A stretch of DNA of 60,858 nt, filler included, from Thelocarpon superellum (Eukaryota): the NCBI GenBank assembly GCA_026025795.1. It is 2 parts of 2 records of this genome, joined end to end, with 100 filler letters (N's around TTAATTAATTAA, not from the genome) between each part and the next. Parts side by side here need not be neighbours in the genome. Positions count along the whole stretch, not along the records: positions 1 to 30,441 come from JAPEUG010000203.1; 1 more part is not named here. One strand, written 5' to 3'. The position numbers and the translations under genes were made by a program. This document shows positions 1 to 57,373 of the stretch, piece after piece. The notes below the pieces were generated by a model. The model was given only the letters and a program-made list of their open reading frames with translations, searched no databases and was not told the DNA's origin. The number at the start of each line of letters is the position of its first letter. The first letter of the stretch is position 1.

Positions 1-103
1 TTCCCCTGCTCCTGATACGGGGATCGACGCGATGCACCCTCCCCTTGCCCCTAATATAGAGATTATAATGAAAGACGTCTTTCACCACGCTCACGTCTTC
101 GTG

Positions 104-163
104 GCCTGCTCCAGGGCCTGCTCCAGGGCCTGCTCCGTGGCCTGCTCCGTGGCCTGCTCCGGG
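104..163. repeat. 12-bp tandem repeat x5 (GCCTGCTCCRKG)
   Basis: Units gcctgctccagg x2, gcctgctccgtg x2, gcctgctccggg; reads EQAT/EQAL repeats on the minus strand. Confidence 0.9.
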
Positions 164-898
164 CCCGGATCCTGCGCGCTGCGCGTGCAGCGATGCACCG
201 CCATGTCTCCCCGCCGACCATGACGCCTGCGCGCGCAGGCTGGTGTTGTTCTGCTTTAGGTCGCCGTCCGTGACGGGTTAGCTCACGACTCCCCGTGTTT
301 ATCTTCCCCAGCCGTCTTCTTTATGATCAACACTTCCCCTCGAGGTGTTGTGAACCATCCATCCTCCTCTTTCACACCCGCTGCTTCCATCTGCTCTTCT
401 GCTCCGTGCATCTCCATCACTCTTCTCCATCGTTCACTTGCTCCATCCCAGCCTTCCCTGTCAACACTCTGCTCTTCGCCAACAGATTCCTCACGGACGT
501 GCTCGTTCACTCGCCGCCACCCAAACTCTTTTCAGACAGAGATCGTGTTTCAGCGGACTACCTCCCTCCAGCCACTCGCGGTGCCTCGAGCCTTAGTTCC
601 CCCCGTTCACTCGCTCCGCCCCGCCCTTCCCTCCATCTGGGAGTGTTGATTCCCAAGCCCGCGCCGTACCTTCACTCGCAACACGTCGCCTGCCTCGCTC
701 GAGACGCGCGTCCAAGCAGCCGTGGCCCACTCGCCGTAGCTTATCCTCTTTCCCACTCGCCGGCTCCCACTCGCTTCTTGCTTCTCTTTCCACGCACACA
801 TCTTCCAAGATTTCCGCACTTCTTCGACTCTGATCAGCCCAGCTTGCAACAGATCTTCCATCATCGGCTCTCTGAACATCCATCATTCCTGCTCCCAC

Positions 899-1020
899 GA
901 GTTCTTCCACCGTCAGCTTCTCAATCTTCTCGAGACTCGCCCGGCAAAGCTGCTCCACCCGAGTTCCTCGACCGCCAGACCCCTCTCCTCTTCGAGTTTC
1001 GCCTGCAAAGCTTCTCCACG
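899..1020. repeat. Degenerate ~61-bp tandem duplication in a CT-rich block
   Basis: 899-960 (gagttcttccaccgtcag...ggcaaagctgctccaccc) aligns with 961-1020 (gagttcctcgaccgccag...tgcaaagcttctccacg) with substitutions and a small indel. Confidence 0.7.
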
Positions 1021-1304
1021 AGCCTCATCCACCCTGAACTGCCATCGATCCGGCTTCCAAGCCGCTTTCGTACCTCCTGGTCATCACAGACTTCATCCGC
1101 TTCAAGATTTCCTGCTCCTCTCCGTCAGCTTCAAGACTTCCTGCCCCTCTCAACGTCTTCAAACTCTCTGCCGTCCTTCACATCTGCAGACTTCGAGTCC
1201 TTGCAGATCCTTCGCTTGACAGCAGCTCTTCTCTCCACGTTCGACGGTTCCTTAACCCTCACGCTCTCCCGCTCCCTTTTCTTCCCGCTCTTCAAGAGAA
1301 AGAC

Positions 1305-2754
1305 ATGTCGTCCTCCCAGAACGCGTCGAGCGGTGGGTCCAACAAGTCTCAGGTGCACGAGGACCTCCCTGTGGAGGCCTCCATCGATCCGAGTCTCCTC
1401 CCCGCCCCCGCCGAGACGACCGCTTCCGCGGACCAAGCCACGCCCGATGATCACGAGCCGGACCACACAGGGTCAGCTGATGCCGGCGCCCGAGGCACCA
1501 AGCGGCTCCATGCCGAGGATTCCCCTAGCCCAGAGGCAAAGAAAGCCCGTCACGAAGAGGGCACGGAAGCCCAGGGTGACGACGAGATGGACGTGGATTT
1601 GGCCCACGATACCACGGAGGATCAGGCCTTTCTCGAACGTGAGGAGGCCGCCCTGGCTCCACGTAGCCCTCCGCCGAATCCCACGTGGACCATGCTGGAG
1701 CACCACGCCCGCAACGACGACGGGACCACGGACGAGGTCAAGTTGGACGAGTTCCTGACCTTCTTGAGCGAGAACCACCACATCTCCGAGGGAGACGTGA
1801 ACGAGGCTTCGGCCAACGAAGAGGCCTGGTCGGCGTCGCGTGAGGGTAAGGGGGACCCTGAGCCCAGTCTGAGTCAGGCGGCCGCTAACGTTGACGCAGG
1901 CTCAGATGGCGCACTGAGCGGGGAGTCAGGACCGGGTGGGTCCCAGGCCCAAGCTGGGGCCCACTCCGGTCCTGATCGGGACACAACCGACTACCCGCAG
2001 CTGTCGGAAGCTGCGGGGCCCCCGCTCCAGATGGCTGGAGCCCCAGGGGCTGACCAACGATGCTGCTGGTGCCGGCATCGCGCAGGATATCGTACGTTGG
2101 TAACGTGCGTTAGTGGATTCTGCTCGACTGTATACTTCCATCTGGACTGTATATCCCTCGACCAAGTCCCTCGTGGTAAGATCTCTCGTTTGGTATACGG
2201 GCGAGCTGGCTAAGTGTCTCTTAGTATGGATCTGCCCGGCGTGCTCTCCGGAGCCAGCTGATGACGCCCCGGGGACTCCGCCGGCGCGGGAAGACCGCGG
2301 GGAGTCCCCGGGCTTGTTCATGTCCCCGTTCGGCTCGCCCACCGGGCCCCCCGCCGCCACCGCCGCACCCTCCACCGCCACCGCCACCGCCACCGCCACC
2401 GCCACCGCCACCGCCACCGCCGCCGCGGCCGGCAGTCGGTGGACCGAAGCAGAGAACCAGGCCGTTATGACCCTGGTCCGGCGGTTGCGTACGGGCACCG
2501 CCCAGGCGAGCGGAGCCCCGGGCGACGACGGCCTTTATGGCAATCCCTTATGGGAAGAGGTCGCCCGTCAGCTGGCACTGCAGCTGATCGGCTATCGGCG
2601 ACCGGACGCAATACGCTCCCAGTATAATCGGACGCTGCGGGAACGGAGCGGGTTTGACGAGCGTGTCCGGCCACCACCTGCGCAGCGGGCCCCGTCCGCC
2701 ACGCAGGGACCGGCAGTTCAAGAGTCGCCCCCTCCTGACGTGGAGTCCGAGTGA
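1305..2754 (+). CDS. PHD-finger plus Myb/SANT-like domain protein (2 exons: 1305-2175, 2225-2754)
   Basis: Intron GTAAGA...GCTAAG...TTAG (2176-2224) joins two ORFs and completes a C4HC3 finger CCWC...VTCVSGFC...YFHLDC...VPRVWICPAC; C-terminal RWTEAENQAV...LWEEVARQL...AIRSQYNRTLRERSGFDER is Myb-like; acidic disordered N-terminus. Confidence 0.8.
2374..2421 (+). repeat. (GCCACC)n coding microsatellite (Thr-Ala tract)
   Basis: Run of accgcc units encoding TATATATATATATA in the linker between PHD and Myb-like parts. Confidence 0.9.
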
Positions 2755-3027
2755 TACTGGGGACGGGGAGGTATTGTCCCGGCGCCGATGGTCGCGGGTT
2801 TTGGTGAAGCTGTGGGTAGAAGAGTGAGGGGCAAGGCAGTGAGCTCCCGAAGCCCCGCGATACCAACAAGCCGGCGGATGAGTGTGGTGGTGACGTATGA
2901 TCGCGGCGTGCCCCCGTGGATCTCCTTGTTCTCCGTTCATCTTCTGACGTGAATTATCTACAGTGCTTTCAGTTGTTTGTGCGGAGCCCCCGCTGTCCGT
3001 GCCGAACGCCCGTGATTCCATGCCCTG

Positions 3028-4421
3028 TCAGATTGTCTCCTCCGGAACACTCACTGTCTGCACGGTGGCAGACGCCTCTTTGCCCGTCTCCGTCAGCTTC
3101 TCCGGCTCCGCATCGGTCTGCACCTTGGCCCGCACCCATGGCCAGCGCCCCGTCGTCTCGTTGTACCTCATGGCGACAAAGCCTACGATGATGACGAGCC
3201 AGTACAGGTTGTACGAGATGACCGAGCCGTACGTGGCGGAATTGGTCCAGCCCAGCATGGCGTTGAAGATCCCCCAGCCTCCACCACCGTTCAGCTCCGG
3301 GTTGCAGCACTGCGAATACAGCGTCAGCGAGGAACGGGCGACGATCGCGACCCAGGCGGACCCCATCTTACGTTGACGTGCCAGACGCTCTGGCGGATGT
3401 CATAGGAGCCCGGACCGTCGCCGGTCTCATCCGCGTCACCTCCGACGATATGGTTCCACTATGCCGACCGTGTCAGCCAGAGCCGTGCAGCAGAGGGAGC
3501 GGCGCCGTGCTCACCGCGTTGCCTTCAAAGTACCCGACCGCCTTCGAGAGCAGACCGGCAGCGATGAGATACAAGAAACAGGTCGAGATGATCAAGAAGA
3601 TCTGGATGGAGGCGCGTTGGCCACCCCTGGCGCTCGCAGGTTAGTCGCTTGCACCGGTACGTCGACCACGCACGCGTCTCATGAGCCGGCGACTCACTTG
3701 TAGATTAGGAAACCAATAAAGCACCCGGCGGCGAGTCCCGAGATGGCGGCCAAGGGGAACGCGGACGCCGGCTGTCCCAGACTGACGCCCCCGATAAAGA
3801 CGACCGCCTCGAGCCCCTCACGCAAGACGGTGATGAAGGGGAGCATGAACATGGCATACTTCTCCGCCCACCGCGCGAAGCGGCCCGTCCCCTTCCACGT
3901 GGATTCCTTGGACTCGAGCGCCCGGGCGAGCTTGACCCGCCACTTGTCTTGCAGCTTGGAGAGGCGGAGGAGCGCGCCGCCCATGAGACTGATGACGATC
4001 GTTGCGATCAAGCCGAAGATGCCCTCCCAGATCTCTTCGGTCCCGGCCCAATGATCGTTCCCGAGGCTGTAGAAGGCGCCGATCAACCCCCCACCGATGA
4101 TCACGCAGATCAAGAAGCCGATGCTCGTGCCCAACCACACCTACCCGCGTCTCCGTCAGCCTTCCGCCTTCTGCCTTCCGCCTGCGCAGCGCCGGCACGA
4201 GGAGCTCTCACCTGCTTGACCAGTCGCTTGTACGTGACGGCATCACGATCCGGCCCCAAGGTCTGCTTCAAGAAGGCCAGCAGCACCGAGACGATGATAC
4301 TGGTCTCGAGCGTCTCGCGGAATACGATGAAGAAGACTGCGCCGACGGGCGATCAGATTGGCCCTGGCCGCGTCTCCGAAAACAAACAGCACTCACGTGG
4401 GACGGCAAAGAGGTTGACCAT
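3028..4421 (-). CDS. FTR1: High-affinity iron permease Ftr1/FtrA (exons 4421-4397, 4336-4212, 4140-3698, 3626-3372, 3309-3028)
   Basis: Two RExxE motifs (FRETLE, LREGLE), multiple TM segments, SVWHVNCCNPE and [23 protein letters not shown] motifs; four GT-AG introns restore the frame. Confidence 0.97.
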
Positions 4422-4527
4422 GACGAATCTCGTGCGCGAGAGGTTGCTGGACGTCGGGCGAGAAGTCGTGAAGGCTCCACCCCTCAGCGAGGCACACACA
4501 GTGGATGGTGTTGGGCGGAGAAGGCGG

Positions 4528-5563
4528 ATCTGATAATGGGTGGACGGGGTGGAACAGCGGATCTGATAAGGTGTGGAAGGGCCGAAGTGCACGAAAAAAG
4601 GGCGAGCGGAGGGACGTGGGAGGGCACGCTACGCGTGATCGGATAACATAATTTCCCTACGCTACGGTCGCGCCTTCCGATCTGCGCCGCTCGTGCCGAT
4701 GCCGGATGCTGCCTTAGACCCTCGGCGCCGTGGGGCCTAGGACGACGCTTAGCCCGATGGACTCACTCTTACTTCACACGGCACCGCGACCGCGAAAAGC
4801 TCCTGCACGGATACCTAAGAGCAACGCATCATCCGACGCCCAGAGCCCGCCCAGAGCCCGCCTGCTTTCGGCGGTCGACGTGGTCAAATTAGTATCGATG
4901 CAAGTGCAGTGCCGAGCTAGCAAAATGGACGGACCGAGTGTGAGCGGGGCGGCGCCGCTCGTGTCAAGTGGGGGCGGCGGGCGGCGGGCGGCGGGCGGCG
5001 TGCGACCAGATGATCTGATATGATAACGTAATTAAGGTTATCGCTCGGTGGGCGAACGCTCCCAAAGGTCGACCAACGGATGGCCCTCATTGGCCCCGAT
5101 GGCGAGGCAGAATTTTTATCAGATGCAACGCCGGCCGATCTGACAAGCGGAAGCGACAGGCTCCGGGGCGCTTAACTGGAGAGGCACGGGCGGCGCCGTG
5201 GACGTTCCATCGTCCATGACACGCTCGTCGCCTTGGAGAAATGCCCATGCCAATGCCGCCTAGCCGTGTGCCGGCAGCCCGCTAATTCCGCACGGGCAGC
5301 CTCTTCTCCCCACCGGCACCTACTATGTGGTTGGCCCCGCCGGCCTCGCTCGGCCGGGCTGTGACTGCGAGAGTTATCTGATCCGCCCCGTGCCTGTCAA
5401 CATGACGCTGAACCCGACCCTCCCATGCAGCTGCGCGCCAGCGACCCAGGAACCACGGCCTTCCCACGCGGTCCTCCGAGCGTAACCGGTGGGTAGGCGC
5501 CTCGGACGGCCCCAGCGTGCCCCGGATCCCATCCACCACCAGAAGGTCGGATTCTTATCAGAT
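4528..5563. promoter_or_regulatory. Bidirectional FTR1/FET3 promoter with clustered SreA/Sre1-type GATA sites (ATCWGATAA)
   Basis: Exact matches at 4528-4536, 4561-4569 (+) and 5116-5124, 5374-5382, 5555-5563 (-); one-mismatch copies at 4638-4646, 5013-5021, 5138-5146. Confidence 0.88.
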
Positions 5564-5787
5564 CGAGCCCACCCCTCCCACCGCCACGGATCCACCCACG
5601 GCTCCTACCCGACGCCTTGCTCCAGACGCCATCGCCTAGGAAACATCAGCGGTCGCGGTCGCAGTATCGCCAGCCCCTTACCTCCCCGTGTGGCCCGGCG
5701 CGTCCGGAGTGGATGGTAAGCAGTCCACTTCCCCTCTCCATCCAGTCCAGTGCGTCCGAACCACGCTCGTGGTTCCTGTTCCCATCC

Positions 5788-7931
5788 ATGGCTGCTCGCG
5801 CCTCCTTTCTCTCGCTTGTCGCGCTGCTCTTGGTCTGCTACGGAGGTGTGAGCTGGGCGGCGATGGTGACCTATGACTTTAACATCACCTGGGTCACGGC
5901 AAGTCCAGATGGCTTCGAGCGGCCAACGATTGGCATCAATGGGCAATGGCCGCTTCCTCCGATCACCGCAGATAAGGGGGATCGGATCATCGTCAACCTG
6001 GTGAACCAGCTGGGCAATCAGTCAACCAGTCTTCATTTTCATGGCATCTTCCAGACCGGCAGCACGGACATGGACGGTCCGGCCTTTGTGTCGCAGTGCC
6101 CGGTGCCCCCCGGGGCCTCGTTCCAATACAACTTCACCGTACGTGCCCTCGACGTCGGATGGTGCTCCGACATCGTTGACTAATAGTCCGCAGGTCAACC
6201 AACCCGGAACCTACTGGTACCACTCGCACACGCGTTCCCAGTATCCCGATGGGCTGCGCGGTCCTCTGATCATCCATGACCCGGACTCGCCTCTGCTGGG
6301 CCAGTACGACGAGGAGCTCGTACTCACCGTATCCGACTGGTACCACGACCAGATGACGCCGCTCATGGAGCATTTCATCAGTGTCGCCAACCCGACCGGG
6401 GCTGAGCCGATCCCCGACGCGGCGCTGTGGAACGACACACAGAACCTCGACGTCCCCGTGCAGCCGGGCAAGACGTACCTGATTCGCATGGTCAACGTCG
6501 GCGCCTTCGCGGGTCAGTATGTGTGGTTTGAAGGGCACACGATGCGCATCGTCGAGGTAGATGGAGTCTACACCGAGCCCGCCGAGGCGGCCATGATCTA
6601 TATCACCGCGGCGCAACGATACAGCGTCTTGCTTACGACGAAGAATGACACCAGCGCCAATTATGCCTTTGTCGCGAGCATGGACGAGGCCATGTTCGAC
6701 ACCGTGCCAGACGGCCTCAATCCGAACGTGACGGGCTGGCTCGTGTACAACACGGGCCACCCCCTCCCTGACCCGGTCGGAGTGGATGACTTTGAGCCTT
6801 TCGATGACTTCACCCTGATACCCGCCGATCACCAGGCCTTGTTGGACAAAGTCGATTACTCGTTGAAGCTAGCATTTGAGATGAATGACCTCGGCGACGG
6901 AGCCAACTAGTGAGTTCACCGTCCGCGGCGTCGCGTCCGCGTCCGCAGCCACTGATCAGACCATCAGCGCCTTCTTCAACGGCGTCACCTACGTCTCGCC
7001 CCAGGTGCCAACCCTGTTCACCGCGCTCTCGACCGGTGCCAACGCGACCAACCCGGTCATCTACGGCGCCAACACCAATGCCTTTGTGCTCAACAAGGAC
7101 GACGTGGTGGAGATCGTGGTCAACAGCAACGATCCAGGCAAGCATCCGTTTCATCTTCACGGGCATAACTTCCAGGCCGTGGTCCGGGCAGACGACAACG
7201 AGGGAGCCTACAACGGCACCGGCTCCGTGCCCTTGCCCGCGATCCCGATGCGGCGGGACACTTTCATGGTCAAGCCGAACGCGAACGTCGTGCTGCGCTT
7301 CCAGGCCGACAACCCAGATACGTTCTCCCCTTCCGACACTTTCTCGAATGAAGCTGACGTGTCTCCACGCATCTGGCTGTTCCATTGCCACATCGAATGG
7401 CACATAGCTTCAGGCCTCGTGGCGACGATGATCGAAGCTCCCACAGAGCTGCAGAAGACGCTGCAGTTGACCCCGGACCATCTGAGCACCTGCAGAGACC
7501 AAGGCATCCCTACGGCCGGCAACGCCGCCGGGAACACGGCTGATCTTCTGGACCTGAGCGGCAACAACTACCCACCGGCCCCACTTCCAGACGGGTACGT
7601 GCTGCTGTGCTCCTCGACTCTCCCCTGAGCCACCAGGGCATCATGACCATACTCATCGCGATGCAGTTTCACGGCCCGCGGCATCGTCGCTCTGGTCTTC
7701 AGCGTCCTGAGCGCATTCATCGGCATGGCCGTCATCACATGGTGAGTGGAGCCACGTCCACCATCTCAATTACCCTCCGCTGCCCTAGTGGTGGCCCAAT
7801 CTCTCGAGGAAGTGACTGAGCACTTCTTCCGTTCGCGTAGGTACGGGTCCAGCGAGTTCCGCATGCTGCCTCCGCCCGAGCTTGCGCTTCACTCGGGCCT
7901 TCGAGACGACACGGAGAATTCGTCGCAGTAG
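5788..7931 (+). CDS. FET3: Multicopper ferroxidase Fet3/FetC (exons 5788-6138, 6194-6909, 6968-7317, 7369-7594, 7667-7741, 7841-7931)
   Basis: Signal peptide; copper motifs [24 protein letters not shown]; Fet3-type acidic residues in GAEPIP, DEAMFD, MRRDT; C-terminal TM helix [28 protein letters not shown]; divergent from FTR1. An in-frame ATG at 5713 is an alternative start. Confidence 0.97.
7318..7368 (+). other. Putative AT-AC spliceosomal intron (51 nt) in FET3
   Basis: CCAG|ATACGT...GCTGAC(7353-7358)...TCCAC|GCATCTGG; removal restores the conserved [16 protein letters not shown]. Confidence 0.85.
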
Positions 7932-8351
7932 ATCAAAAGTCGGCGACTGGAGTGAGCTTGACTTGTACCTACCCGCTCCAGAGACGTGATTATCGGACGG
8001 GCGGGCCAAGGGTAGTTAAACCAAACAAATCGAATGAGCGGACGGACGGACGGAGAAGCGAGGTGGAGGAGATTCGTCACTGCCGTGTCTTCTTGTCTCA
8101 TGTCAAATATCACTCTCTTCCTTTCGCTCTTCCTCTCTCTAGTCATGATTGAAATACCCATTCATCCTTGCTTGTCAGTATGCAAGCCGTGAAGTCATGT
8201 CTATACGAAACGAAACAGTCACCCCATCCCGATCTCATTAATACTATGTACGTAGAGAATTGTAATCCGATTTCTTCTTCCCTTTCCCCCGTTCGTGTTC
8301 GTTCCCGCACAAAGTCGTCGGCCAACTGGTTGAGAAGAAAAGATCCGACCC

Positions 8352-8972
8352 TCAAAGCCCCTGGTCATTGTTGGTGCTGGGCTCCTGCAGGAGACGGATC
8401 GTGCCGGCGATGAAGTCGGATGATTTGGGATTGGGGACGACGATGTCGGCGATGAACCTGCCCAGCTCCGTGCCGTCGCGGAGGAGCCCCTGCAGGACGT
8501 CGAAGATGTCCGACACGTCGCCCCACGTCAACAGCTTATCCGTCAGCAGGTTCTCCTTGCCCTTTGGAATCTTCTTGGTGAGCAGCATGAACGACCACCC
8601 TTCCCACGGCATGAAGATGTGGCGGCGTCGGCCTCGGATGACGAGGTCCTTCCGTCGGCTGTACACCGCCACCAGCGCGTTCTTCAGCGCTTCCTGCAGC
8701 GTGGCGGCCGCGAGGGGCGCCAGGTTCGTCGTGAGCTTCAGCAGAAGGTTATGCCCGCTTCTGGTCTGGATGGTAATGGGGGTCTCGCGTCGCGCGAGCC
8801 GGCGGCGCGCCTGCGAGAATGTGTCGGTCGGAGGGTATGGATACCGTGCAGGCGAGGATGGCCTTCCCGTGAAGGAATCTAGCTCACTGCCGACGATGAG
8901 CTCCATCGGTCGAGCCACCACCAAGCACGAGAGCAGGGTGGTGGCACCGACGAGAAAGCCAGCGACACGCAT
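8352..8972 (-). CDS. Putative secreted protein of unknown function (~206 aa)
   Basis: ATG at 8972 gives signal-like MRVAGFLVGATTLLSCLVVA, a Pro-rich pro-region ending in RRRLARR, then a globular-looking domain with LTWGDV; TATA-like element near 9115-9121. Confidence 0.7.
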   Translation of the reverse strand: MRVAGFLVGATTLLSCLVVARPMELIVGSELDSFTGRPSSPARYPYPPTDTFSQARRRLARRETPITIQTRSGHNLLLKLTTNLAPLAAATLQEALKNALVAVYSRRKDLVIRGRRRHIFMPWEGWSFMLLTKKIPKGKENLLTDKLLTWGDVSDIFDVLQGLLRDGTELGRFIADIVVPNPKSSDFIAGTIRLLQEPSTNNDQGL

Positions 8973-10631
8973 GGTCGAGACACGTGGGATGGAGGAGCGG
9001 TCCTTTGGGCCTGTTCGAGCCGCTGGACCCGGGGGAAGGAATGGGCGGCGAAGAATCCCTTGGCCAGATTTGCAGCAGAGAAGGTCTCGGGTCGATCGCA
9101 CGGGGCGGGGAGGGTATATATCACGGCTGTCATCAACAGTGGCGCGAGGCCACATGGACGTCACTTCTTATCAGGAGAGCATTCGTTCATTGTGGCCAGA
9201 GCGGTGCAGAGCATAAGGCTCGTGCACGTCGTCCGAGGATGCAGCGGCATGTGCCTTCACCTTCATGGCTATCGGAGCTCTGCCACCACCGCTGCCGCCA
9301 CCAACCAATAGCTGGTCAAGGCAAGGGCAAGGGACTAGTCATCACTGATAGCTGTTGGATCAATACCGGAAGGATCAGCACGCGCATAGGAGGGGAGCGG
9401 GCGGTGGAAAGTTGATCTGAATGTCCATCAGATGTTGGTGAGAAGCAGGAGTCAGACAGTCGCCAAGACGCCCTCCCGCATATGATCGTTGCCAGAATGA
9501 GCAGGAGCGTAGGCCCGTGTGAGCGTGGGATGCCGTCGCAAACGGTGCCTGAGTAACCTAGTTTGACCTGCAGACTTTCTTCATTGGAAAGTTGCAGGTC
9601 TTGCGACAAACCCTATCCTGGGCCAGACGGTAGCTATGCTCACCGCCCCTCAGGGATAGGTAGTGAAGTGGCGCTTGATTTCACGCGAGAGAGATATTGT
9701 GGCGGTTGTAGGATCGCCTCATTCCGAGTCACTACGCCCACGTCGTTCGTTGACGATGCTAGCTTTGTCCCCCACGTCTATGTCTCCCTTGTTCTCCCGG
9801 GCAAAGTGTTTGTAAGAGTGGACGGTGGTCCATGGAGGCGCCGGGCAACAGGCTCAAAGTCATGGGCGCGGGTGGTCTGATAGGATCACACCACTTAAGT
9901 CTGTAACAGTACGTGAACATGGATGGCGTGCAAAGTTCTTTGTAGAGAACTACCAGTAAGTGCTTCGTACGAGGAGTGGTTCGATGGAAGATAGTGGTAG
10001 TACTCGTACGGTCACATTCAGCGGGCTTGCATTCGTCCCTTATGCTTCTAGAAGACCCAGCGTGCGCGGCCGGTCCCGCTGCTATTTGAGAGATCATGGG
10101 GTCATCGATGCGAATCAAGTACGAATACCTTGTTACAAACTTGCTGTTCCCCATTTAACGTATGTTGGTAGGCGTTGCACCTCGCACCAATCAGAGGGCG
10201 TATGTACGCGTACTTTGGACGAGGACACCCTAGAATCCGTGGCGAAGCCGGTGTGGCGGCGAAATGAGCCTCGCGCGGCCGACGTCTCCCCACCGCCAAC
10301 AATCCCTCCCTTCTTGCCTGTTCCAGCACACGGCGGCCTGCTTAGCAGCAACGATATGTTGGCAACGAGTCATCTCAACGAGCTGTCTTACACTTCACAT
10401 GCCCTCCATTATAGCTGCGCATCAATATCAGTCATCGCCTGATGCGTGTAAACGTGTGAATTGGTGTTTCGCCTGAAGTATATCTAATCAGCGATTCTTC
10501 TCGTCCAACACCCCCCCGAAGCTGCTCTCATCGGCACGTTGAAAGGCTAAGAGCATCAGGCCCAGCGGGCACGCAGCAAGGAAGATCGTGGACGTCGTGA
10601 TGCGGCGACACATGTATGGCACTGGCTCCCC

Positions 10632-11749
10632 TCACCCCACTCGCTCCTCGTAGGCCAGCCACGCTTCTCGGCGATATCGTTCCGCCTCCGCCGCCCGGTC
10701 CCTGGCGGTGATGATGCCCCGGCCGACGATGATCACATCGCTGCCCTTCTGCAGCACCACATGTCGTGGGCTGTTGTACTGTTGACCGAGCCCATCGCCC
10801 GTCGGAACCGGCCCGTCGCCTCCCGCAGCGGGCAGCGAGACGCCCGGGGTGAGCGTGAGGAAATGGTCGTCGTCGTCGGAGTTAAGCGATCGCTGGGCCA
10901 CGAAGCCGACGACGAAGCCGCGGTGCTCGCGCGCCATCGACACGCACTGGGCCGTGTACTCCTCCGTCAGCAGGTTGCCCTTGGAGCTCATCTCGGCCAG
11001 GAGTAAGAGTCCCCGCTCCATCGGCGGCTCGCCGAGCTCCACCAGCGCATCGCCCATGCTTCCCGCCGCCAACAGCTTCGCCCTCGGAGTCGTGGGTTCG
11101 AAACGCATCTCGATGGTCGTGGTCGACACGATGCTCCCCACGCGATGCGTCCGCTCGCCCGTCTCCTCTCCGTGCTCGTCCAGCGTATCTTCCGCCGAGA
11201 TCTCGGTCGTGACGCTGTGGTTGGAGGATTTGTGGAAGCTGTCGGCCGACGCTTGGAGCGCCGACACGATGGCTGGCCCCGGGAAGACGTGGGCATTCGT
11301 CAAGGACGCCCACTCCACAATCCGTAACGGCCCCGCCGCATATTGTCGCTGCACCGTACCTGTCCACATCCCCCGATCAGCGGCGCACGAGGCATGGCGC
11401 GTCGAGGGTCGGTCTGTAGATCATACGTACTCCCGATATCGCCAAACTTTCGATCCTCAAAGAGAAGGAACTTCTTGCGCGTCGCGATCTCTTGAAGCCG
11501 CTCAATTGTGGTGCTGCCCCAGTCGTCCACCATGTCCGCATGGGTCTTGAGCATGCAGATGCTGTCGCCCACCTCTTCCGCCAGGCGGATCAGCTGCGCG
11601 GTCGAGGTCACGTCGGCGCTGACGCACAGGTTCGTCTCTTTGACCGTCATTAGCTGGAGCAGATAGCGTGCTAGCGGGTGCGTGCCGGGCAAGAGAGCCC
11701 GGGTGCTGAAGGGCTGTGCCACGATGGCATTCCCGTTCAGCCTCGCCAT
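10632..11749 (-). CDS. URA3: Orotidine-5'-phosphate decarboxylase (exons 11749-11431, 11359-10632)
   Basis: NLCVSADV, LKTHAD, FEDRKFGDIGSTV, LLAEMSSKG, GDGLGQQY, IIVGRGI motifs; GTACGT...CAG intron. Confidence 0.98.
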
Positions 11750-12728
11750 CGTGCCGCCACGCCTCTGCGGCTTGCGGCCGTGTTTGTCCGGAGCTGTCAC
11801 GACCTATTCGGCTACTGATCGAAGCTCAAGCTGATCTCGAATGGCGACTTAGCATGGCATGTCGTCCTACGCAGGCCTTTGGATATGCTTGGATGTGTTT
11901 GGGCATCGTGTTCTGGACCATCCGATGGCAATCAAGGCCGTGCCACGGACACCCTATCCGAATGATGCCGCTGCACTACTCCGCGCAGTGCCCCAGGCAG
12001 GCATACGAAGCGAGCATTTCAGGCGTCCGCGCATTGTGGGGGTCAGGTGACTGATACCTCCACCACTTGACCTCGGATTTTAGACCGCCTTTCCACCTAC
12101 GGGCTAGCATGCACGTAGATACGAAGTACTTCGTACGTACCGCTTTAGAAAGGGATGGCCTAGGCCACCTCCTTGCAACACCAGGAGCCCCGCAGGCCGT
12201 TGTGCCTGCGCACTGGGAACGAGGGCGGTCGGTCCGGGCCGTAGTAGCATGGGCGGAACCGCTAATCTTAGTGTCGGTCGTGGGCCCATATTCCACATCC
12301 TCAGTCCCAGGATGACTGTACATGCCGCATCAAAGGCTTGGGCCATGATCGACCCGAGAGCCATCAGTGCCGCCGTATCCGGTACCTCGTACCATGTGCA
12401 TGGGCAGCGCCCTCTTTCGTGCGGAGCATCGCTGTGGTGGACTAGCCGCCCCAATGTTCCTGGCTCCCAAGCCCGCGGTTGGCGGCTGCGAACCAGTCCG
12501 CCGGGTGGTCTCCCTGCACCCGACATCCTTAGCGAAGCGCTAGCTGGGTCGTGACGATGGCTCACGGGGCTTCGTCGGAGTGCTGGAGCTGGTGCCCATG
12601 AATCCACGTCGAGACCTGCTTAGAGATCTTTCCCCGGCGTCTTGCCACCCCCTTCCCTCCCATCGCATCCGTCTCCATGTCTCTTCAGGCTCTTCCACGC
12701 TCAGCCGCGCGTAGACAAGCCCCTGGGG

Positions 12729-14132
12729 ATGGGCCCCACTGACATGGCCGTTCCAGAGGGCACTGGAGCCGAGGACGAAGCAAATCACGCCGCAGCCTCT
12801 CCGACTGAGAGTGCTGAGATCGTCGCCAACGGCGATCTACGTGTGGAGCTGGAGGGTGGGGGAAAGAATGGGGCTCCTCTGCTCGTGCGGGTCGACCGCG
12901 CACACCTTCGTAAAGCAAGCCGGTACTTCCACGTTTTGCTGGACTCACACAAGTTCGCGGAGGGCAGCGCGCTGCAGGACCGTCACGACCACCTGCGCAG
13001 CCAGGGCGTTCGTCCGGCGGATGGGCCGAACGGGCTGCTACCGCGGATCCGCATCGGCGACACGGGACGGATGGGCCCATGTCCTGAGGGCATCGGCGCT
13101 GTCACGCTCGACTTCTTCCGCGTCCTGCACGGATTGCCGATGCAGAGGCCTCGCCATAGCGTCGCCTTCCTTGCCAACGCCGTGATCCTGGCCGACCGCT
13201 TCGATTCGCTCCCCGTCCTCTCCGCGTACATCAAGGCGCACCGTCTGTTTCCCAGTAAGGACCCCATCCCGGGCGAGGTCCTGACCGCTCTTGCGCAAGA
13301 GCAACGAGACCGTCAGAGGTTGCTGATCTGTACCCTCCTGGACCATCCATCGTGGTTTGGGCCGGCGACAGGCCGTCTGGTCGCCTATGATTACGACATG
13401 CGGCATGCCACGTCGACTGCAAAGTCCGTCGCGCGGTCCGCGGTGGCTCAGGGATTGTGGTGGTCGCTCCCCGATGAGCTCGAAGGTATGCAGGGGCCCT
13501 CCCGGTTGAAGAGGTGGCTGACGGCGGGTCTAGCGGAACTGCTGCATCGACGAGAGTGTATCCTGGAGACGCTCCATTCGCTTCAGGTGGGGGTGATGGA
13601 AAGCTACATGTCACGCATCCGCCAATGTACCTTGGGCTACGACTCATCGGTACAGTGCGACGACTTCCAACTAGGACAGGCCGTTCGTTTCTTCAACCGC
13701 ATCGGCACCCTCCGGATGTCGAGCAATCTGTACGACAGCGGCTTCTCCGACCCATTCATGGGCAATGTCAAACGGCTCATCGCCAACCTACGACAGTTTC
13801 CGCCTTACCAGATCGACGGCAATCATGCGCACTGCGGCCCGCGGACGAAGCTGATTCCGGCGCTTGATTTCCTCCAAACCGTCCTGGCCCGAGAAACGGA
13901 CATGTGCTGGACGTGTTGGCGGCAGGATCGTGCAAACTATCGCTGGTCGGACGTGGAGCCGGCCAGGCATTGGCGATTAGAGAGCGACATGGCAGCGTGG
14001 AAAGGTCAGAGATGCCGCGAGTCGCACCGGCAGGCGAAAGCCATGTTCACTGCCCTACATCGAGTCTGGAATGAGGCGCAGGAGAGCCCCGTGAGGCCCA
14101 TGGGTTGCAGTTCCATCACGGGGAGTAGATAG
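12729..14132 (+). CDS. Conserved fungal protein with BTB/POZ-like N-terminal region (in-frame intron 13486-13533)
   Basis: IVANGDLRVEL...VRVDRAHLRKASRYFHVLL resembles a BTB start; C-terminal RQCTLGYDSSVQCDDFQLGQ and YQIDGNHAHCG blocks; GTATGC...GCTGAC...TAG intron. Start codon uncertain (12729 or next Met). Confidence 0.8.
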   Translation: MGPTDMAVPEGTGAEDEANHAAASPTESAEIVANGDLRVELEGGGKNGAPLLVRVDRAHLRKASRYFHVLLDSHKFAEGSALQDRHDHLRSQGVRPADGPNGLLPRIRIGDTGRMGPCPEGIGAVTLDFFRVLHGLPMQRPRHSVAFLANAVILADRFDSLPVLSAYIKAHRLFPSKDPIPGEVLTALAQEQRDRQRLLICTLLDHPSWFGPATGRLVAYDYDMRHATSTAKSVARSAVAQGLWWSLPDELEGMQGPSRLKRWLTAGLAELLHRRECILETLHSLQVGVMESYMSRIRQCTLGYDSSVQCDDFQLGQAVRFFNRIGTLRMSSNLYDSGFSDPFMGNVKRLIANLRQFPPYQIDGNHAHCGPRTKLIPALDFLQTVLARETDMCWTCWRQDRANYRWSDVEPARHWRLESDMAAWKGQRCRESHRQAKAMFTALHRVWNEAQESPVRPMGCSSITGSR

Positions 14133-41435: not shown

Positions 41436-41808
41436 CTGAGCGAGTGAGTGGGTGACGGGGTCAATGTTGCTCGATCGAGCTGCAATCGTGATTCCGTCTT
41501 TCTCCCCTCTCCACTCCCCTCCCCTGTTTCTTCTTTTCCTTCGTGGTCATGGCGAATGGATGGAGCGAGAGATGAGGCTGCGGGATGGAGGAAAGGGAGT
41601 TGGATAGGATCAGAGAGTGTATGTATTTCTTGGCTCCAACACACCTACCTACCTATAAATCTAGTCTCCACTTCCGATCTCTCTCTTTCCCATTCCTGAC
41701 GTAACGATGATTTCGATACAACTGTGGGTGTGGGTGTGTCAGGAAGAGAGAGGCAGGTACGCTGGCAAAAACAGACACGGACGCATGCGGAACAAGAGTA
41801 AAGTTCCG

Positions 41809-51977: not shown

Positions 51978-53600
51978 CTACCATGGCTTGGCTACACCTG
52001 TCACGACCAGTGCCCCCTCGCCGACCTCGACCTTCCACCCTTCGCGCATCAGCATTCGTCCGACAGCAGGTCCGATTTTGGCCTTGCCCCCCTCGCTATG
52101 GCGACCCACGCCCGTGACGATGCGATAGGCCTGGCCGGCGCCCGCTCGTCCGCCAATTCGTGACTCGCCTAGCCCAACCCACCAGGTCGTGACGCGCTCG
52201 CGCGCAATACGAAGTGCGTCCTTTACCCGCACTCCGTGTAGGTCGAGCTCGGCGCGGCTGGATTGCGCGTCCACCATGGCGTCTGCCGCTGCAGCACTGT
52301 ATTGCCGCGCGTGGCTGTCATATTCTCGGCCCAGGCTACTGTAGTACCCCGCCGCTGCGCCCATCAGGTGGTCCGATTTGCCTTTGCGATATGCCTCCGA
52401 GGCCTGCGCGAACGCCCTCTGCCGTGCGGTGCCGTAGGCGCTGGCGAGTGCAGTTGCCTCGGCGTGAGATTGCGGCACGTGGGATCGTGCCCGAGGCTGT
52501 ACCGCAGTGTCTGATGAAGCGAGCGAGATGGGCGGGAGCCTGGTAATAATCTCAAGGCCCTGTGCGGCGCTTGGGCGAGGTATGTTCGTGAGGGCCATCG
52601 CAAGCTCATGAGCGGCCGTGAGCGATGGTCGCGTTAGGCGAATCAAATGAAGCATATCGGAGGTGGGAATGGTGGGAAACTCATCGCGAAGCTCCTTCAG
52701 TTGCACCTCGACGACGGGGTCCAGCTCGTCTGCATCCTCTCCTTCCGCGTTTGGGAGCTTCATGATTGCTTGCAATGCCGCTGGAATTGTCGCCCCATTC
52801 TGGTGGTAGATGGAGACCACGGTGGACCGGCGCAATTGGGTCCGTGACGCAAGAAAGTCGATCTCTTCTTTCATGAGATCCCACTTGCTCCCCTGGCCTT
52901 GATTTGTCACATCCATCAAGCCCGAGGTCACGACTTCTGTACGCTTCGTCTGGGGTGGGCGGAGATGATGTCTTCTCTTCTTGCTCTTCAGAGTCCCGTC
53001 ACGGGCCACATTGTCTGCTGCGAAGCCATCAACGCCCTTTTTCAGGAGCACCTCCCCATCCTCATCGCCCTTCTCCAAGAAGACTTGGGTCAAGAGCTGT
53101 TCAACCGCAGCATTGAACTTGTCTCCCGTCTTTTTCAAAGTGTGAGCAACGGTGAACTCTCCGACACCCGGGAACATCTCCTGGAGCAATGCGACTTTTC
53201 CATCGCGGTCCAAGTTCTCCAAGCTTAGCGCATACGCATCTCCGTCTGCATCTAGACAGGAACTGGTGCGGTCCGACGACGTGGTCTCAAGGTAACCCGA
53301 GCCATCTTCGTGCCGTAAATCCCAGTCGAGCTCTTGAAGGTCTTCTGACCCAAGGTGGACATCAGCGACACTCTCGCCCGACGCGGCATCACGTAGAGGA
53401 TCTAGTGTGTCGCGTAGCAACTGAAGGCTCTGCTCATCGTCGAGGTCGAACTCGGACGAGATGGCCAAGAGCAGGGCTTCATCCAGCGGGGGACAGTATT
53501 CGCTCTAGGCAGTCCGGTCGCCCGATCAGTACGGACCTCGCGAGACGCGCGAAATCTCAGCTTCCGTGCGTACCTGCAGCTTCTCCATTGCTGTACTCAT
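51978..53600 (-). CDS. CUE plus Smr domain protein (exons 53600-53574, 53504-51978)
   Basis: EYCPPLDEAL N-terminus, CUE-like LQEMFP, AAGYY helix, Smr domain LDLHGVRV...IVTGVGRHS. Confidence 0.9.
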
Positions 53601-56590: not shown

Positions 56591-57373
56591 GATTTGGCAA
56601 TAATCGTTCTCGTGACTAGTTGCATCTAAGAGGAAAGATGTTTACGACAATCGAAAGGTCGGGTCAACGGGGCTGCTCGTGGTCGCAATGATTCTCAAGA
56701 AATGCGCTGGTGGATGTCCAGGTGGTACGTTAGTGCTGACGGTCCTGCGTTCAGTGACGACATGGCCCAGGTTGGGTGGCGGCATGTCCAGCTTTACGCA
56801 TCTGCCCGCTGTATGTACGAAGTACAGCTACTTGTAGGTCGTTTTGACCCCCAAGAGCACCTTGTCATGCACCGTTCGATCCAATCACGTCAATCCAGTT
56901 GCGCAAGCGGCCATCACCGTGCGGACATTGAAACTGTGCAGAGCACGGGCAAGCGGCCCATCGCTTCGATGTCGCTGGAGCTCTTTGAAATAAGTTCTGA
57001 CACATGACACAAAGTCGAGTGCTTGAAGCCCGGCACCACGCACCCCCAAGTCCTCAAAGATCTGTGTACAAGCGAGATGGCGATTTTGCGGAGGATCGGT
57101 CACTTTGTACCAAAGATGGCTAGAGTAATGGTCCAAGTTTCACCGGGTCGACCGCAAGGGTTTGGGACAAGGAGGCTTGGTTTATCAACGGGCAGGGTGA
57201 CAACACAAGGTACGATCCATCTCGAGACATCCTTTTCCAGTTTATGGCCCTAGTAGGGCAGCAACGATGTGGCGTTGGAGGAGTACAGCATGACGTCAAC
57301 CGACCCGCAAGGGCGTAATCCCAACCTACAGGTTACAGGCAGCCGACTGTCGCTCTTCTCATCGCCCGAGCCC

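Follow-up and report, generated by a model that had tools for sequence, protein, structure and literature searches.

A stretch of 60,858 nucleotides of Thelocarpon superellum DNA, analysed as a whole and referred to here as the window, contains a six-exon gene for a Fet3-type multicopper ferroxidase, FET3, at 5788..7931 on the plus strand. Between exons 3 and 4, at 7318-7368, lies a 51-nt segment that begins with AT and ends with AC and is very probably a genuine FET3 intron removed by the major, U2-dependent spliceosome, the copy in the window being an inherited one in which divisibility of the length by three and the lack of stop codons are incidental. The start codon of FET3 is the ATG at 5788, a small correction to an earlier note on this DNA, and the gene is laid out as follows.

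5788..6138, plus strand: FET3 exon 1, beginning with the ATG at 5788; the model reproduces the deposited protein P0002 when 7318-7368 is retained
6139..6193, plus strand: sibling intron 1, 55 nt, GTACGT...CTAAT...CAG
6194..6909, plus strand: FET3 exon 2, from the gene model
6910..6967, plus strand: sibling intron 2, 58 nt, GTGAGT...CTGAT...CAG
6968..7317, plus strand: FET3 exon 3, with the 3' end ...GCC GAC AAC CCA G
7318..7368, plus strand: probable AT-AC intron, 51 nt, phase 1, within the Gly codon of DNPGxW, assigned from its sequence, the restored DNPGIWLFHCH and homologous introns
7318..7323, plus strand: putative 5' splice site ATACGT, preceded by the exon end CAG (7315-7317)
7353..7358, plus strand: branch-site motif GCTGAC, with the putative branch A at 7357, 11 nt from the last intron base
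7366..7368, plus strand: putative 3' splice site CAC, where YAG would be expected, assigned from the sequence and from relatives
7369..7594, plus strand: FET3 exon 4, beginning GC ATC TGG CTG TTC CAT TGC CAC and encoding the HCH copper ligands
7595..7666, plus strand: sibling intron 4, 72 nt, GTACGT...CTCAT...CAG
7667..7741, plus strand: FET3 exon 5, from the gene model, encoding the putative C-terminal hydrophobic anchor
7742..7840, plus strand: sibling intron 5, 99 nt, GTGAGT...CTGAG...TAG
7841..7931, plus strand: FET3 exon 6, with the stop codon TAG at 7929-7931

When 7318-7368 is retained and the four GT-AG introns are removed, the model gives P0002 letter for letter (619 aa), a protein deposited under the name of metagenome-assembled (MAG) T. 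superellum; the public annotation reads through the segment, just as the earlier note had expected of gene predictors. Removal of 7318-7368 as well leaves a coding sequence of 1809 nt for 602 aa with a single terminal stop. The three Cu-oxidase domains (PF07732, PF00394 and PF07731) are all matched in the protein by Pfam, with E values of 1e-37 to 1e-40, and the copper motifs HPFHLHGH and HCHIEWH are both present. Yeast Fet3p is the best solved relative (1ZPU; E value 7e-157, 527 bits), with the best laccase reaching only 1e-67, and the protein is closer to Fet3p than to the laccases. Opposite the acidic residues of the yeast Fe(II) site in the 1ZPU alignment are the E of NPTGAEP, the D of MFD and the D of NSNDPG, a correspondence that depends on the numbering, in which we take the yeast residues to be E185, D283 and D409 and the offset to be 21 residues. 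A hydrophobic stretch of 21 residues at the C terminus, visible in the alignment as conserved across homologues, is a putative membrane anchor.

The segment itself, ATACGTTCTCCCCTTCCGACACTTTCTCGAATGAAGCTGACGTGTCTCCAC, is flanked by a G at 7317 (the end of CCA G) and a G at 7369. Its donor, ATACGT, is identical to the GTACGT of the siblings at 6139 and 7595 except at base 1, and the GCTGAC at 7353-7358 ends 10 nt before the intron 3' end; the sibling branch motifs (CTAAT, CTGAT, CTCAT and CTGAG) are found approximately 10-21 nt from their intron ends. The length of 51 nt falls just under that of the four siblings (55-99 nt), and the GC content is 0.51, compared with 0.61 in the FET3 exons. Excision gives CCA GGC ATC TGG (PGIW) and restores DNP-G-IWLFHCH, as in yeast Fet3p, against which the read-through protein shows a 17-residue gap precisely opposite the insertion. 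Gly is present at this site in 208/241 homologues collected with an exon 3-4 query. The earlier note had described a stop-free segment of 51 nt, divisible by three, with donor ATACGT, branch motif GCTGAC and acceptor CAC, two further FET3 introns beginning GTACGT (6139-6193 and 7595-7666), a read-through open reading frame (ORF) in which a 17-aa insertion breaks the Gly of DNPGxW, and the return of PGIW upon excision; every one of these details was borne out.

The composite signal ATRHGT..CTRAY..YAC was found nine times in the window, both strands included, compared with 8.9 ± 3.4 times in 50 shuffles, and the signal alone is no evidence. Its match, base for base, to the insertion boundaries fixed by homology is far beyond chance; those boundaries are independently defined (by the 1ZPU gap and by the Gly of 208/241 homologues), and the signal also recurs in other species. 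Other matches to the composite are located at 2878-2961 and 10442-10511 on the plus strand and at 41724-41786, 52618-52684 and 56710-56801 on the minus strand; these are probably due to chance, as the count, the FET3 match included, equals the shuffle expectation. A canonical alternative excision, using a GCTTCC donor 21 nt upstream and an AG 15 nt upstream of the AC, was rejected, since it has a poor donor and deletes RFQADNP.

Homologous DNA was collected with a degenerate pattern that fixed only G-ATAHG, a gap of 42-72 nt, AC-G and the codons of (I/V)W(L/F)FHCH, with the upstream side left unconstrained. Sixteen metagenome loci matched, all with AT...AC at the same phase-1 site and together comprising 10 distinct introns, and at 16/16 loci the upstream context RF.A(D/N)NP was in frame even though nothing in the pattern called for it. 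The distinct introns are 50, 50, 50, 51, 52, 52, 54, 54, 58, and 67 nt long, and retention blocks HCH in all 10, seven being indivisible by three and shifting the frame and three carrying an in-frame stop. An in-frame GT/GC-AG alternative was found in none of eight, and the other two offered only poor donors that delete ADNPG. The copper-binding HCH must be reached by exact removal from AT to AC, and by this route only, in 10/10 distinct relatives. The 5' sites of the metagenome introns are U2-like, namely ATAAGT (six), ATATGT (two) and ATATGC (two), and their 3' ends are CAC in nine and TAC in one, so that with the window CAC is found in 10/11. All 11 distinct sequences have a CTRAY branch site, 10-13 nt away from the AC (the distance in locus L007 having been counted by eye), and ATATCC and TCCTTRAY are absent from 11/11, which extends to the relatives the absence of U12 signals that the earlier note had seen here.

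The surrounding coding sequence also bears the marks of a splice site within a functional gene. The Pro codon preceding the intron is CCA, giving the exon end CAG, in 11/11 distinct sequences, compared with 33/105 nearby Pro codons, and this synonymous site appears to be held by the splice signal. Read in the post-excision frame, the downstream exons of L013 and L015 differ at 2, 4, and 13 first, second, and third codon positions, respectively, and those of L002 and L006 at 11, 5, and 34; the differences are mainly at third positions and no stop was found within 80 codons in the compared loci. The introns of related loci, on the other hand, differ by indels that alter their length modulo three, e.g. 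50 versus 51 nt. Five loci belong to the Tuber group; over 172 aa, the L013 exon shares 97% identity with a protein of Tuber borchii, and it shares 94% with one of Tuber brumale. An AT-AC intron at the same site was also observed in two divergent multicopper oxidase lineages (L001, L011, and L016, and L003-L005, with HCHVEFH and HCHVEWHVEAGL), which are 45-52% identical to Terfezia Fet3 and could be placed only to phylum ("Ascomycota multicopper oxidase"). If these lineages are old paralogues, the intron would predate the duplication.

The same site has left footprints in deposited proteins. In a first alignment, an insertion was present here in 9/25 database proteins, seven running from D to R, one from G to G and one starting with A; D...R arises because G|AT...AC|GN translates in this way, and G...G fits G|GT...AG|GN. 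Among 241 proteins there were 16 D...R insertions (the query and P0002 included), 10 G...G and one A...G. For each of the 15 D...R database proteins, R is preceded by P, S, I, L, V or A, residues that all have an NNA codon and therefore fit an intron ending in ...AC. The insertions are 17 to approximately 30 residues long (50 to approximately 90 nt). Beyond their ends, they share nothing but an L-T, A-D or A-N pair lying a few codons ahead of R, the pair being explained by the translation of CTRAC. Further models run into D-K/M-S... and then stop or lose frame. Altogether 39 database proteins, from 22 named species, start with D directly after DNP, and those that stay in frame end with R. The species belong to Thelocarpon (two, including the congener T. 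impressellum), Agyrium, Ptychographa, Schaereria, Peltigera, Alectoria (two), Watsoniomyces, Vezdaea, Chaenotheca, Candelina, Candelaria, Geoglossum (two), Glutinoglossum, Trichoglossum, Tuber (four) and Choiromyces. A taxonomy look-up placed eight of the genera in Pezizomycetes, Geoglossomycetes, Candelariomycetes, Coniocybomycetes, Lichinomycetes, Lecanoromycetes and two unplaced orders; for the remaining named genera the class is the one to which we take them to belong. That in-frame D...R proteins are common in the databases reflects ascertainment, since a copy that loses the frame does not show up as an open one. In a comparison for an insertion-free near-twin of any D...R protein, two pairs of at least 75% identity were found (76% and 79%), one of them joining two D...R proteins, and neither was informative.

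The consequences for gene models are most visible in the Tuberaceae, where all seven FET3 models compared (P0242, P0243, P0326, P0329, P0330, P0331, and P0332) are defective around the site and none contains HCH. Five of them stop inside the intron after ADNPDMSP..., the Tuber aestivum model deletes RFRADNPGIWLFHCHLE, and the Tuber borchii model goes wrong earlier. P0327 and P0328 were considered as transcripts and rejected, both being exon-1 ORFs that run into intron 1. P0277 (Plenodomus lingam) and P0169 read through another intron, located a few codons further downstream; it falls within the Cys codon of HCH in the former (WLFH-WYVF...SHS-HIEWH) and just before HCH in the latter (WLF-VSLY...YPQ-HCH). 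The model P0301 (Xylona heveae) is without RPNG...ADNPG and P0288 (Alternaria ethzedia) without GVWLFHCHI, and it looks as if in both the predictor skipped an intron that it could not splice.

To follow the intron through the family, a gene tree was built from 108 sequences over approximately 190 residues around the site, 62 rows of which have a known intron state (49 AT-AC and 13 GT-AG-like). Four changes between AT-AC and GT-AG are needed on this tree, compared with a mean of 12.0 in 1000 label shuffles, none of which required four or fewer. A FastTree count of AT-AC against all else over 254 rows, giving 14 changes, was set aside, as its "no insertion" state lumps together genes that truly have no intron and models in which one was spliced correctly. 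The Tuberaceae clade is occupied throughout by AT-AC, as are clades of lichen-forming and allied fungi, and insertions starting with G are found in Sordariomycetes (e.g. Metarhizium), Alternaria and Teloschistaceae (Seirophora). Within the last group, P0297 (Seirophora lacunosa) has GTS...QG at the site, which fits GT-AG, and P0047 (Teloschistes flavicans) has APH...KKG, as expected of a phase-0 GC-AG intron that lies one base upstream; a switch of the terminal dinucleotides thus seems to have taken place within Lecanoromycetes. P0122, the relative closest to the window protein (71% identity), has no intron at the site.

These comparisons point to an AT-AC intron at this site in truffles, earth-tongues, Candelariales, Coniocybales, Lichinales, Thelocarpon, Vezdaea and several Lecanoromycetes, with many fungi apparently having no intron there at all. 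The simplest reading would be vertical inheritance of an old AT-AC intron, with frequent losses and a few switches to GT-AG, although independent gains may account for the same distribution. The alignment of orthologues at the phase-1 position, proposed in the earlier note, thereby returned AT-AC in relatives and GT-AG (or GC-AG) in other lineages, and the view of the intron as a peculiarity of one genome gives way to that of a same-site intron in FET3-type genes which appears to be old and widely inherited. A more specific history seems doubtful: that the first-base G to A and last-base G to C changes occurred once, before truffles split from the other filamentous ascomycetes, and were kept since, also as a throttle on ferroxidase through a slow second step of splicing, from which the GT-AG and GC-AG lineages escaped. 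Were the single pre-truffle origin true, no other U2-type AT-AC intron known in fungi would be as old or as widely inherited; were the throttle true, control of ferroxidase output would explain its persistence, in addition to the need for two simultaneous changes in any reversion.

Several other explanations of the segment can be weighed against this evidence. The earlier note had suggested that inefficient splicing could act as a control, the in-frame mRNA escaping nonsense-mediated decay and an altered ferroxidase tuning reductive iron uptake. The segment is indeed divisible by three and stop-free, the insertion would directly precede the HCH ligands, and an A1/C-last pair is reported to splice less efficiently than G/G (PMC1557818). 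None of the 10 distinct homologous DNA introns, however, is both divisible by three and stop-free, intron lengths drift by indels even between close relatives (such as 50 versus 51 nt), and approximately 9-11% of fungal introns are reported to be in this state by chance (PMC7072748, Table 2). The state therefore looks incidental, a conserved retained isoform is not supported by these comparisons, and regulated retention, whose basis is lost in 10/10 distinct relatives through a frameshift or a stop, appears unlikely. Translation of the 51 nt as coding sequence, which would add a 17-residue loop to Fet3 and put Arg/Asp where the conserved Gly belongs, is more improbable still: the frame is open and the deposited annotation does translate it, but the insertion displaces a residue kept by 208/241 homologues, complete intron signals stand exactly at the homology-defined boundaries, the GC content of 0.51 departs from the 0.61 of the exons, and the segments of other species, 50 to approximately 90 nt long, share only their ends and the branch motif and are untranslatable in 10/10 DNA cases.

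As the source record is a MAG, an error of sequencing or assembly that conceals a GT-AG intron was also considered. Such an error would have to strike twice, at precisely the two terminal bases, and the D-start footprint in independent assemblies of T. impressellum and 20 other named species, together with AT...AC in DNA at 16 independent metagenome loci, leaves it very little probability, in line with the earlier note's judgement. A U12-type intron, handled by the minor spliceosome, has equally little in its favour; its AT-AC termini are typical of one U12 class and the branch site is near the 3' end, yet the donor here is ATACGTTC (ATACGT) rather than ATATCCTT, no ATATCCTT donor was found in 11/11 sequences, and the TCCTTRAY branch site, expected 10-26 nt from the 3' end, is absent from all 11. 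Ascomycota, moreover, are reported to have no minor introns and to lack most or all minor small nuclear RNAs (snRNAs) (PMC10639083, PMC2846911); a search of the 60-kb window with Rfam gave no match at the gathering threshold, which is weak evidence on minor snRNAs, as the window is only part of the genome. That FET3 is a decaying pseudogene in these lineages, with a segment that is never removed, can scarcely be credited: many deposited models are truncated at the site, but the downstream exons are open in the post-excision frame and change mainly at third codon positions, and the entire 602-aa frame is intact here with its three Cu-oxidase domains.

We infer, then, that 7318-7368 is removed by the major spliceosome, because its signals are those of ordinary fungal introns, Ascomycota are reported to be without minor introns and the A-C pair is known to be compensating, a first-base G to A change being rescued, though less efficiently, by a last-base G to C change in yeast and human U2-type introns (PMC1557818). 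The 5' site CAG/ATACGT would be recognized like the gene's own GTACGT donors and attacked by the branch A of GCTGAC (7357); in the second step the first-base A and last-base C would replace the usual G-G contact, and the product would be an mRNA for DNPGIWLFHCH and the 602-aa enzyme. The natural U2-dependent AT-AC intron proposed in the earlier note is thus strongly backed by comparison as far as its existence is concerned, with its splicing and U2 dependence being the conditional part. Certain points weigh against this reading. Splicing is deduced from comparison in every species that bears the intron, and U2 dependence from the resemblance of the signals and from the literature on Ascomycota. 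The T. superellum copy is divisible by three and stop-free, so that its reading frame does not compel excision as it does in the relatives. Most of the named species are known from protein models, in which D may be GAC and R may be AGR, so that AT and AC are probable readings there. The metagenome loci were selected for AT...AC and show that such introns exist and need splicing, not how frequently the termini are conserved. Finally, the four changes on the gene tree are only indicative, the tree being built on approximately 190 residues and relatives sharing labels.

In the neighbourhood of FET3, 12 long ORFs (those of at least 110 aa within approximately 6 kb, at 1-5700 and 8000-14100 of the window) were tested for an FTR1 domain, and none had one. 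Fungal ferroxidase and permease genes are often neighbours, and adjacency to FTR1 is common but not defining. The sequence around FET3 is GC-rich and gives rise to many spurious long ORFs. An orotidine 5'-phosphate decarboxylase domain (PF00215, E value 2e-29) is encoded at 10635-11420 on the minus strand, marking a pyrG/URA3-type gene approximately 3 kb downstream of FET3. The whole window contains 88 N bases.

Gene predictors accept only GT/GC-AG introns, and the consequence for annotation is that at least 22 named species have FET3 models with an error here: a spurious insertion, loss of the motif, or a C terminus that breaks off ahead of the type-1 copper Cys. Such FET3 genes would be counted as defective wherever iron uptake is compared among lichens and truffles. 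A natural and obligatory AT-AC intron in culturable fungi (Tuber), within a phylum reported to be without a minor spliceosome, would also provide a clean system for finding out what the major spliceosome does with an A-C terminal pair and by what means the pair survives or reverts to G-G. The intron state (AT-AC, GT-AG, GC-AG or absent) is in addition a rare genomic change that can be mapped on the class-level tree of Pezizomycotina, which is described as disputed (PMC12238968).

The FET3 intron would be a new addition to the U2-type AT-AC introns, a class known to be very rare. No paper describing it was found, which is weak evidence that it is unpublished, as journal coverage is incomplete and the supplements of surveys (PMC7072748, PMC10639083) lay outside the search. 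Among the known systems, the closest are the animal U2-type ("type II") AT-AC introns, such as those of the SCN4A/SCN5A sodium-channel genes and TAF2 (Sheth et al. 2006, PMC1557818). That survey counts 15 in human, six in mouse, three in fly, and none in worm or Arabidopsis, corresponding to 0.003-0.008% of introns in the three animals, and reports conservation in orthologues for TAF2 (human/fly) and the sodium-channel genes (human/pufferfish). The donor consensus of known U2-type AT-AC introns is given as /ATAAGT (Gould et al. 2016, PMC5029451). The FET3 intron resembles these introns in its AT-AC ends combined with an otherwise U2-type 5' site, which is exactly ATAAGT in six of the 10 metagenome introns, and in a position kept across distant orthologues. 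It differs from them in occurring in fungi, in its short length of 50-90 nt and strong CTRAY 10-13 nt from its end, in lying in a ferroxidase gene, in a host phylum reported to be without a minor spliceosome, and in that its splicing is deduced from sequence.

The same compensating A1/C-last pair, acted upon by the major spliceosome, was reportedly engineered by Parker and Siliciano in 1993, and by others, in U2 introns of yeast and human doubly mutated from G to A at the first base and from G to C at the last (cited in PMC1557818 and PMC5029451). Those were laboratory constructs reported to splice less efficiently, whereas the FET3 intron is natural and apparently persisted while the fungal classes diverged. 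An ascomycete that has no U12 machinery is also known to form a natural AT-AC junction, in Saccharomyces cerevisiae RPL30, where an endogenous nested AT-AC intron is reported as a side product of 1-2% (Gould et al. 2016, PMC5029451). The RPL30 5' site is unlike U2-type AT-AC sites and its use is not needed for the protein; the FET3 intron, in contrast, is consensus-like, and its removal is required in the relatives. AT-AC II introns have further been hypothesized in xylanase genes of filamentous fungi (PMC1557818), and these are likewise proposed to be U2-type AT-AC introns in Pezizomycotina, although in a different gene family. With the U12-type AT-AC introns, the FET3 intron shares its terminal dinucleotides and differs in having neither the ATATCCTT donor nor the TCCTTRAY branch site.

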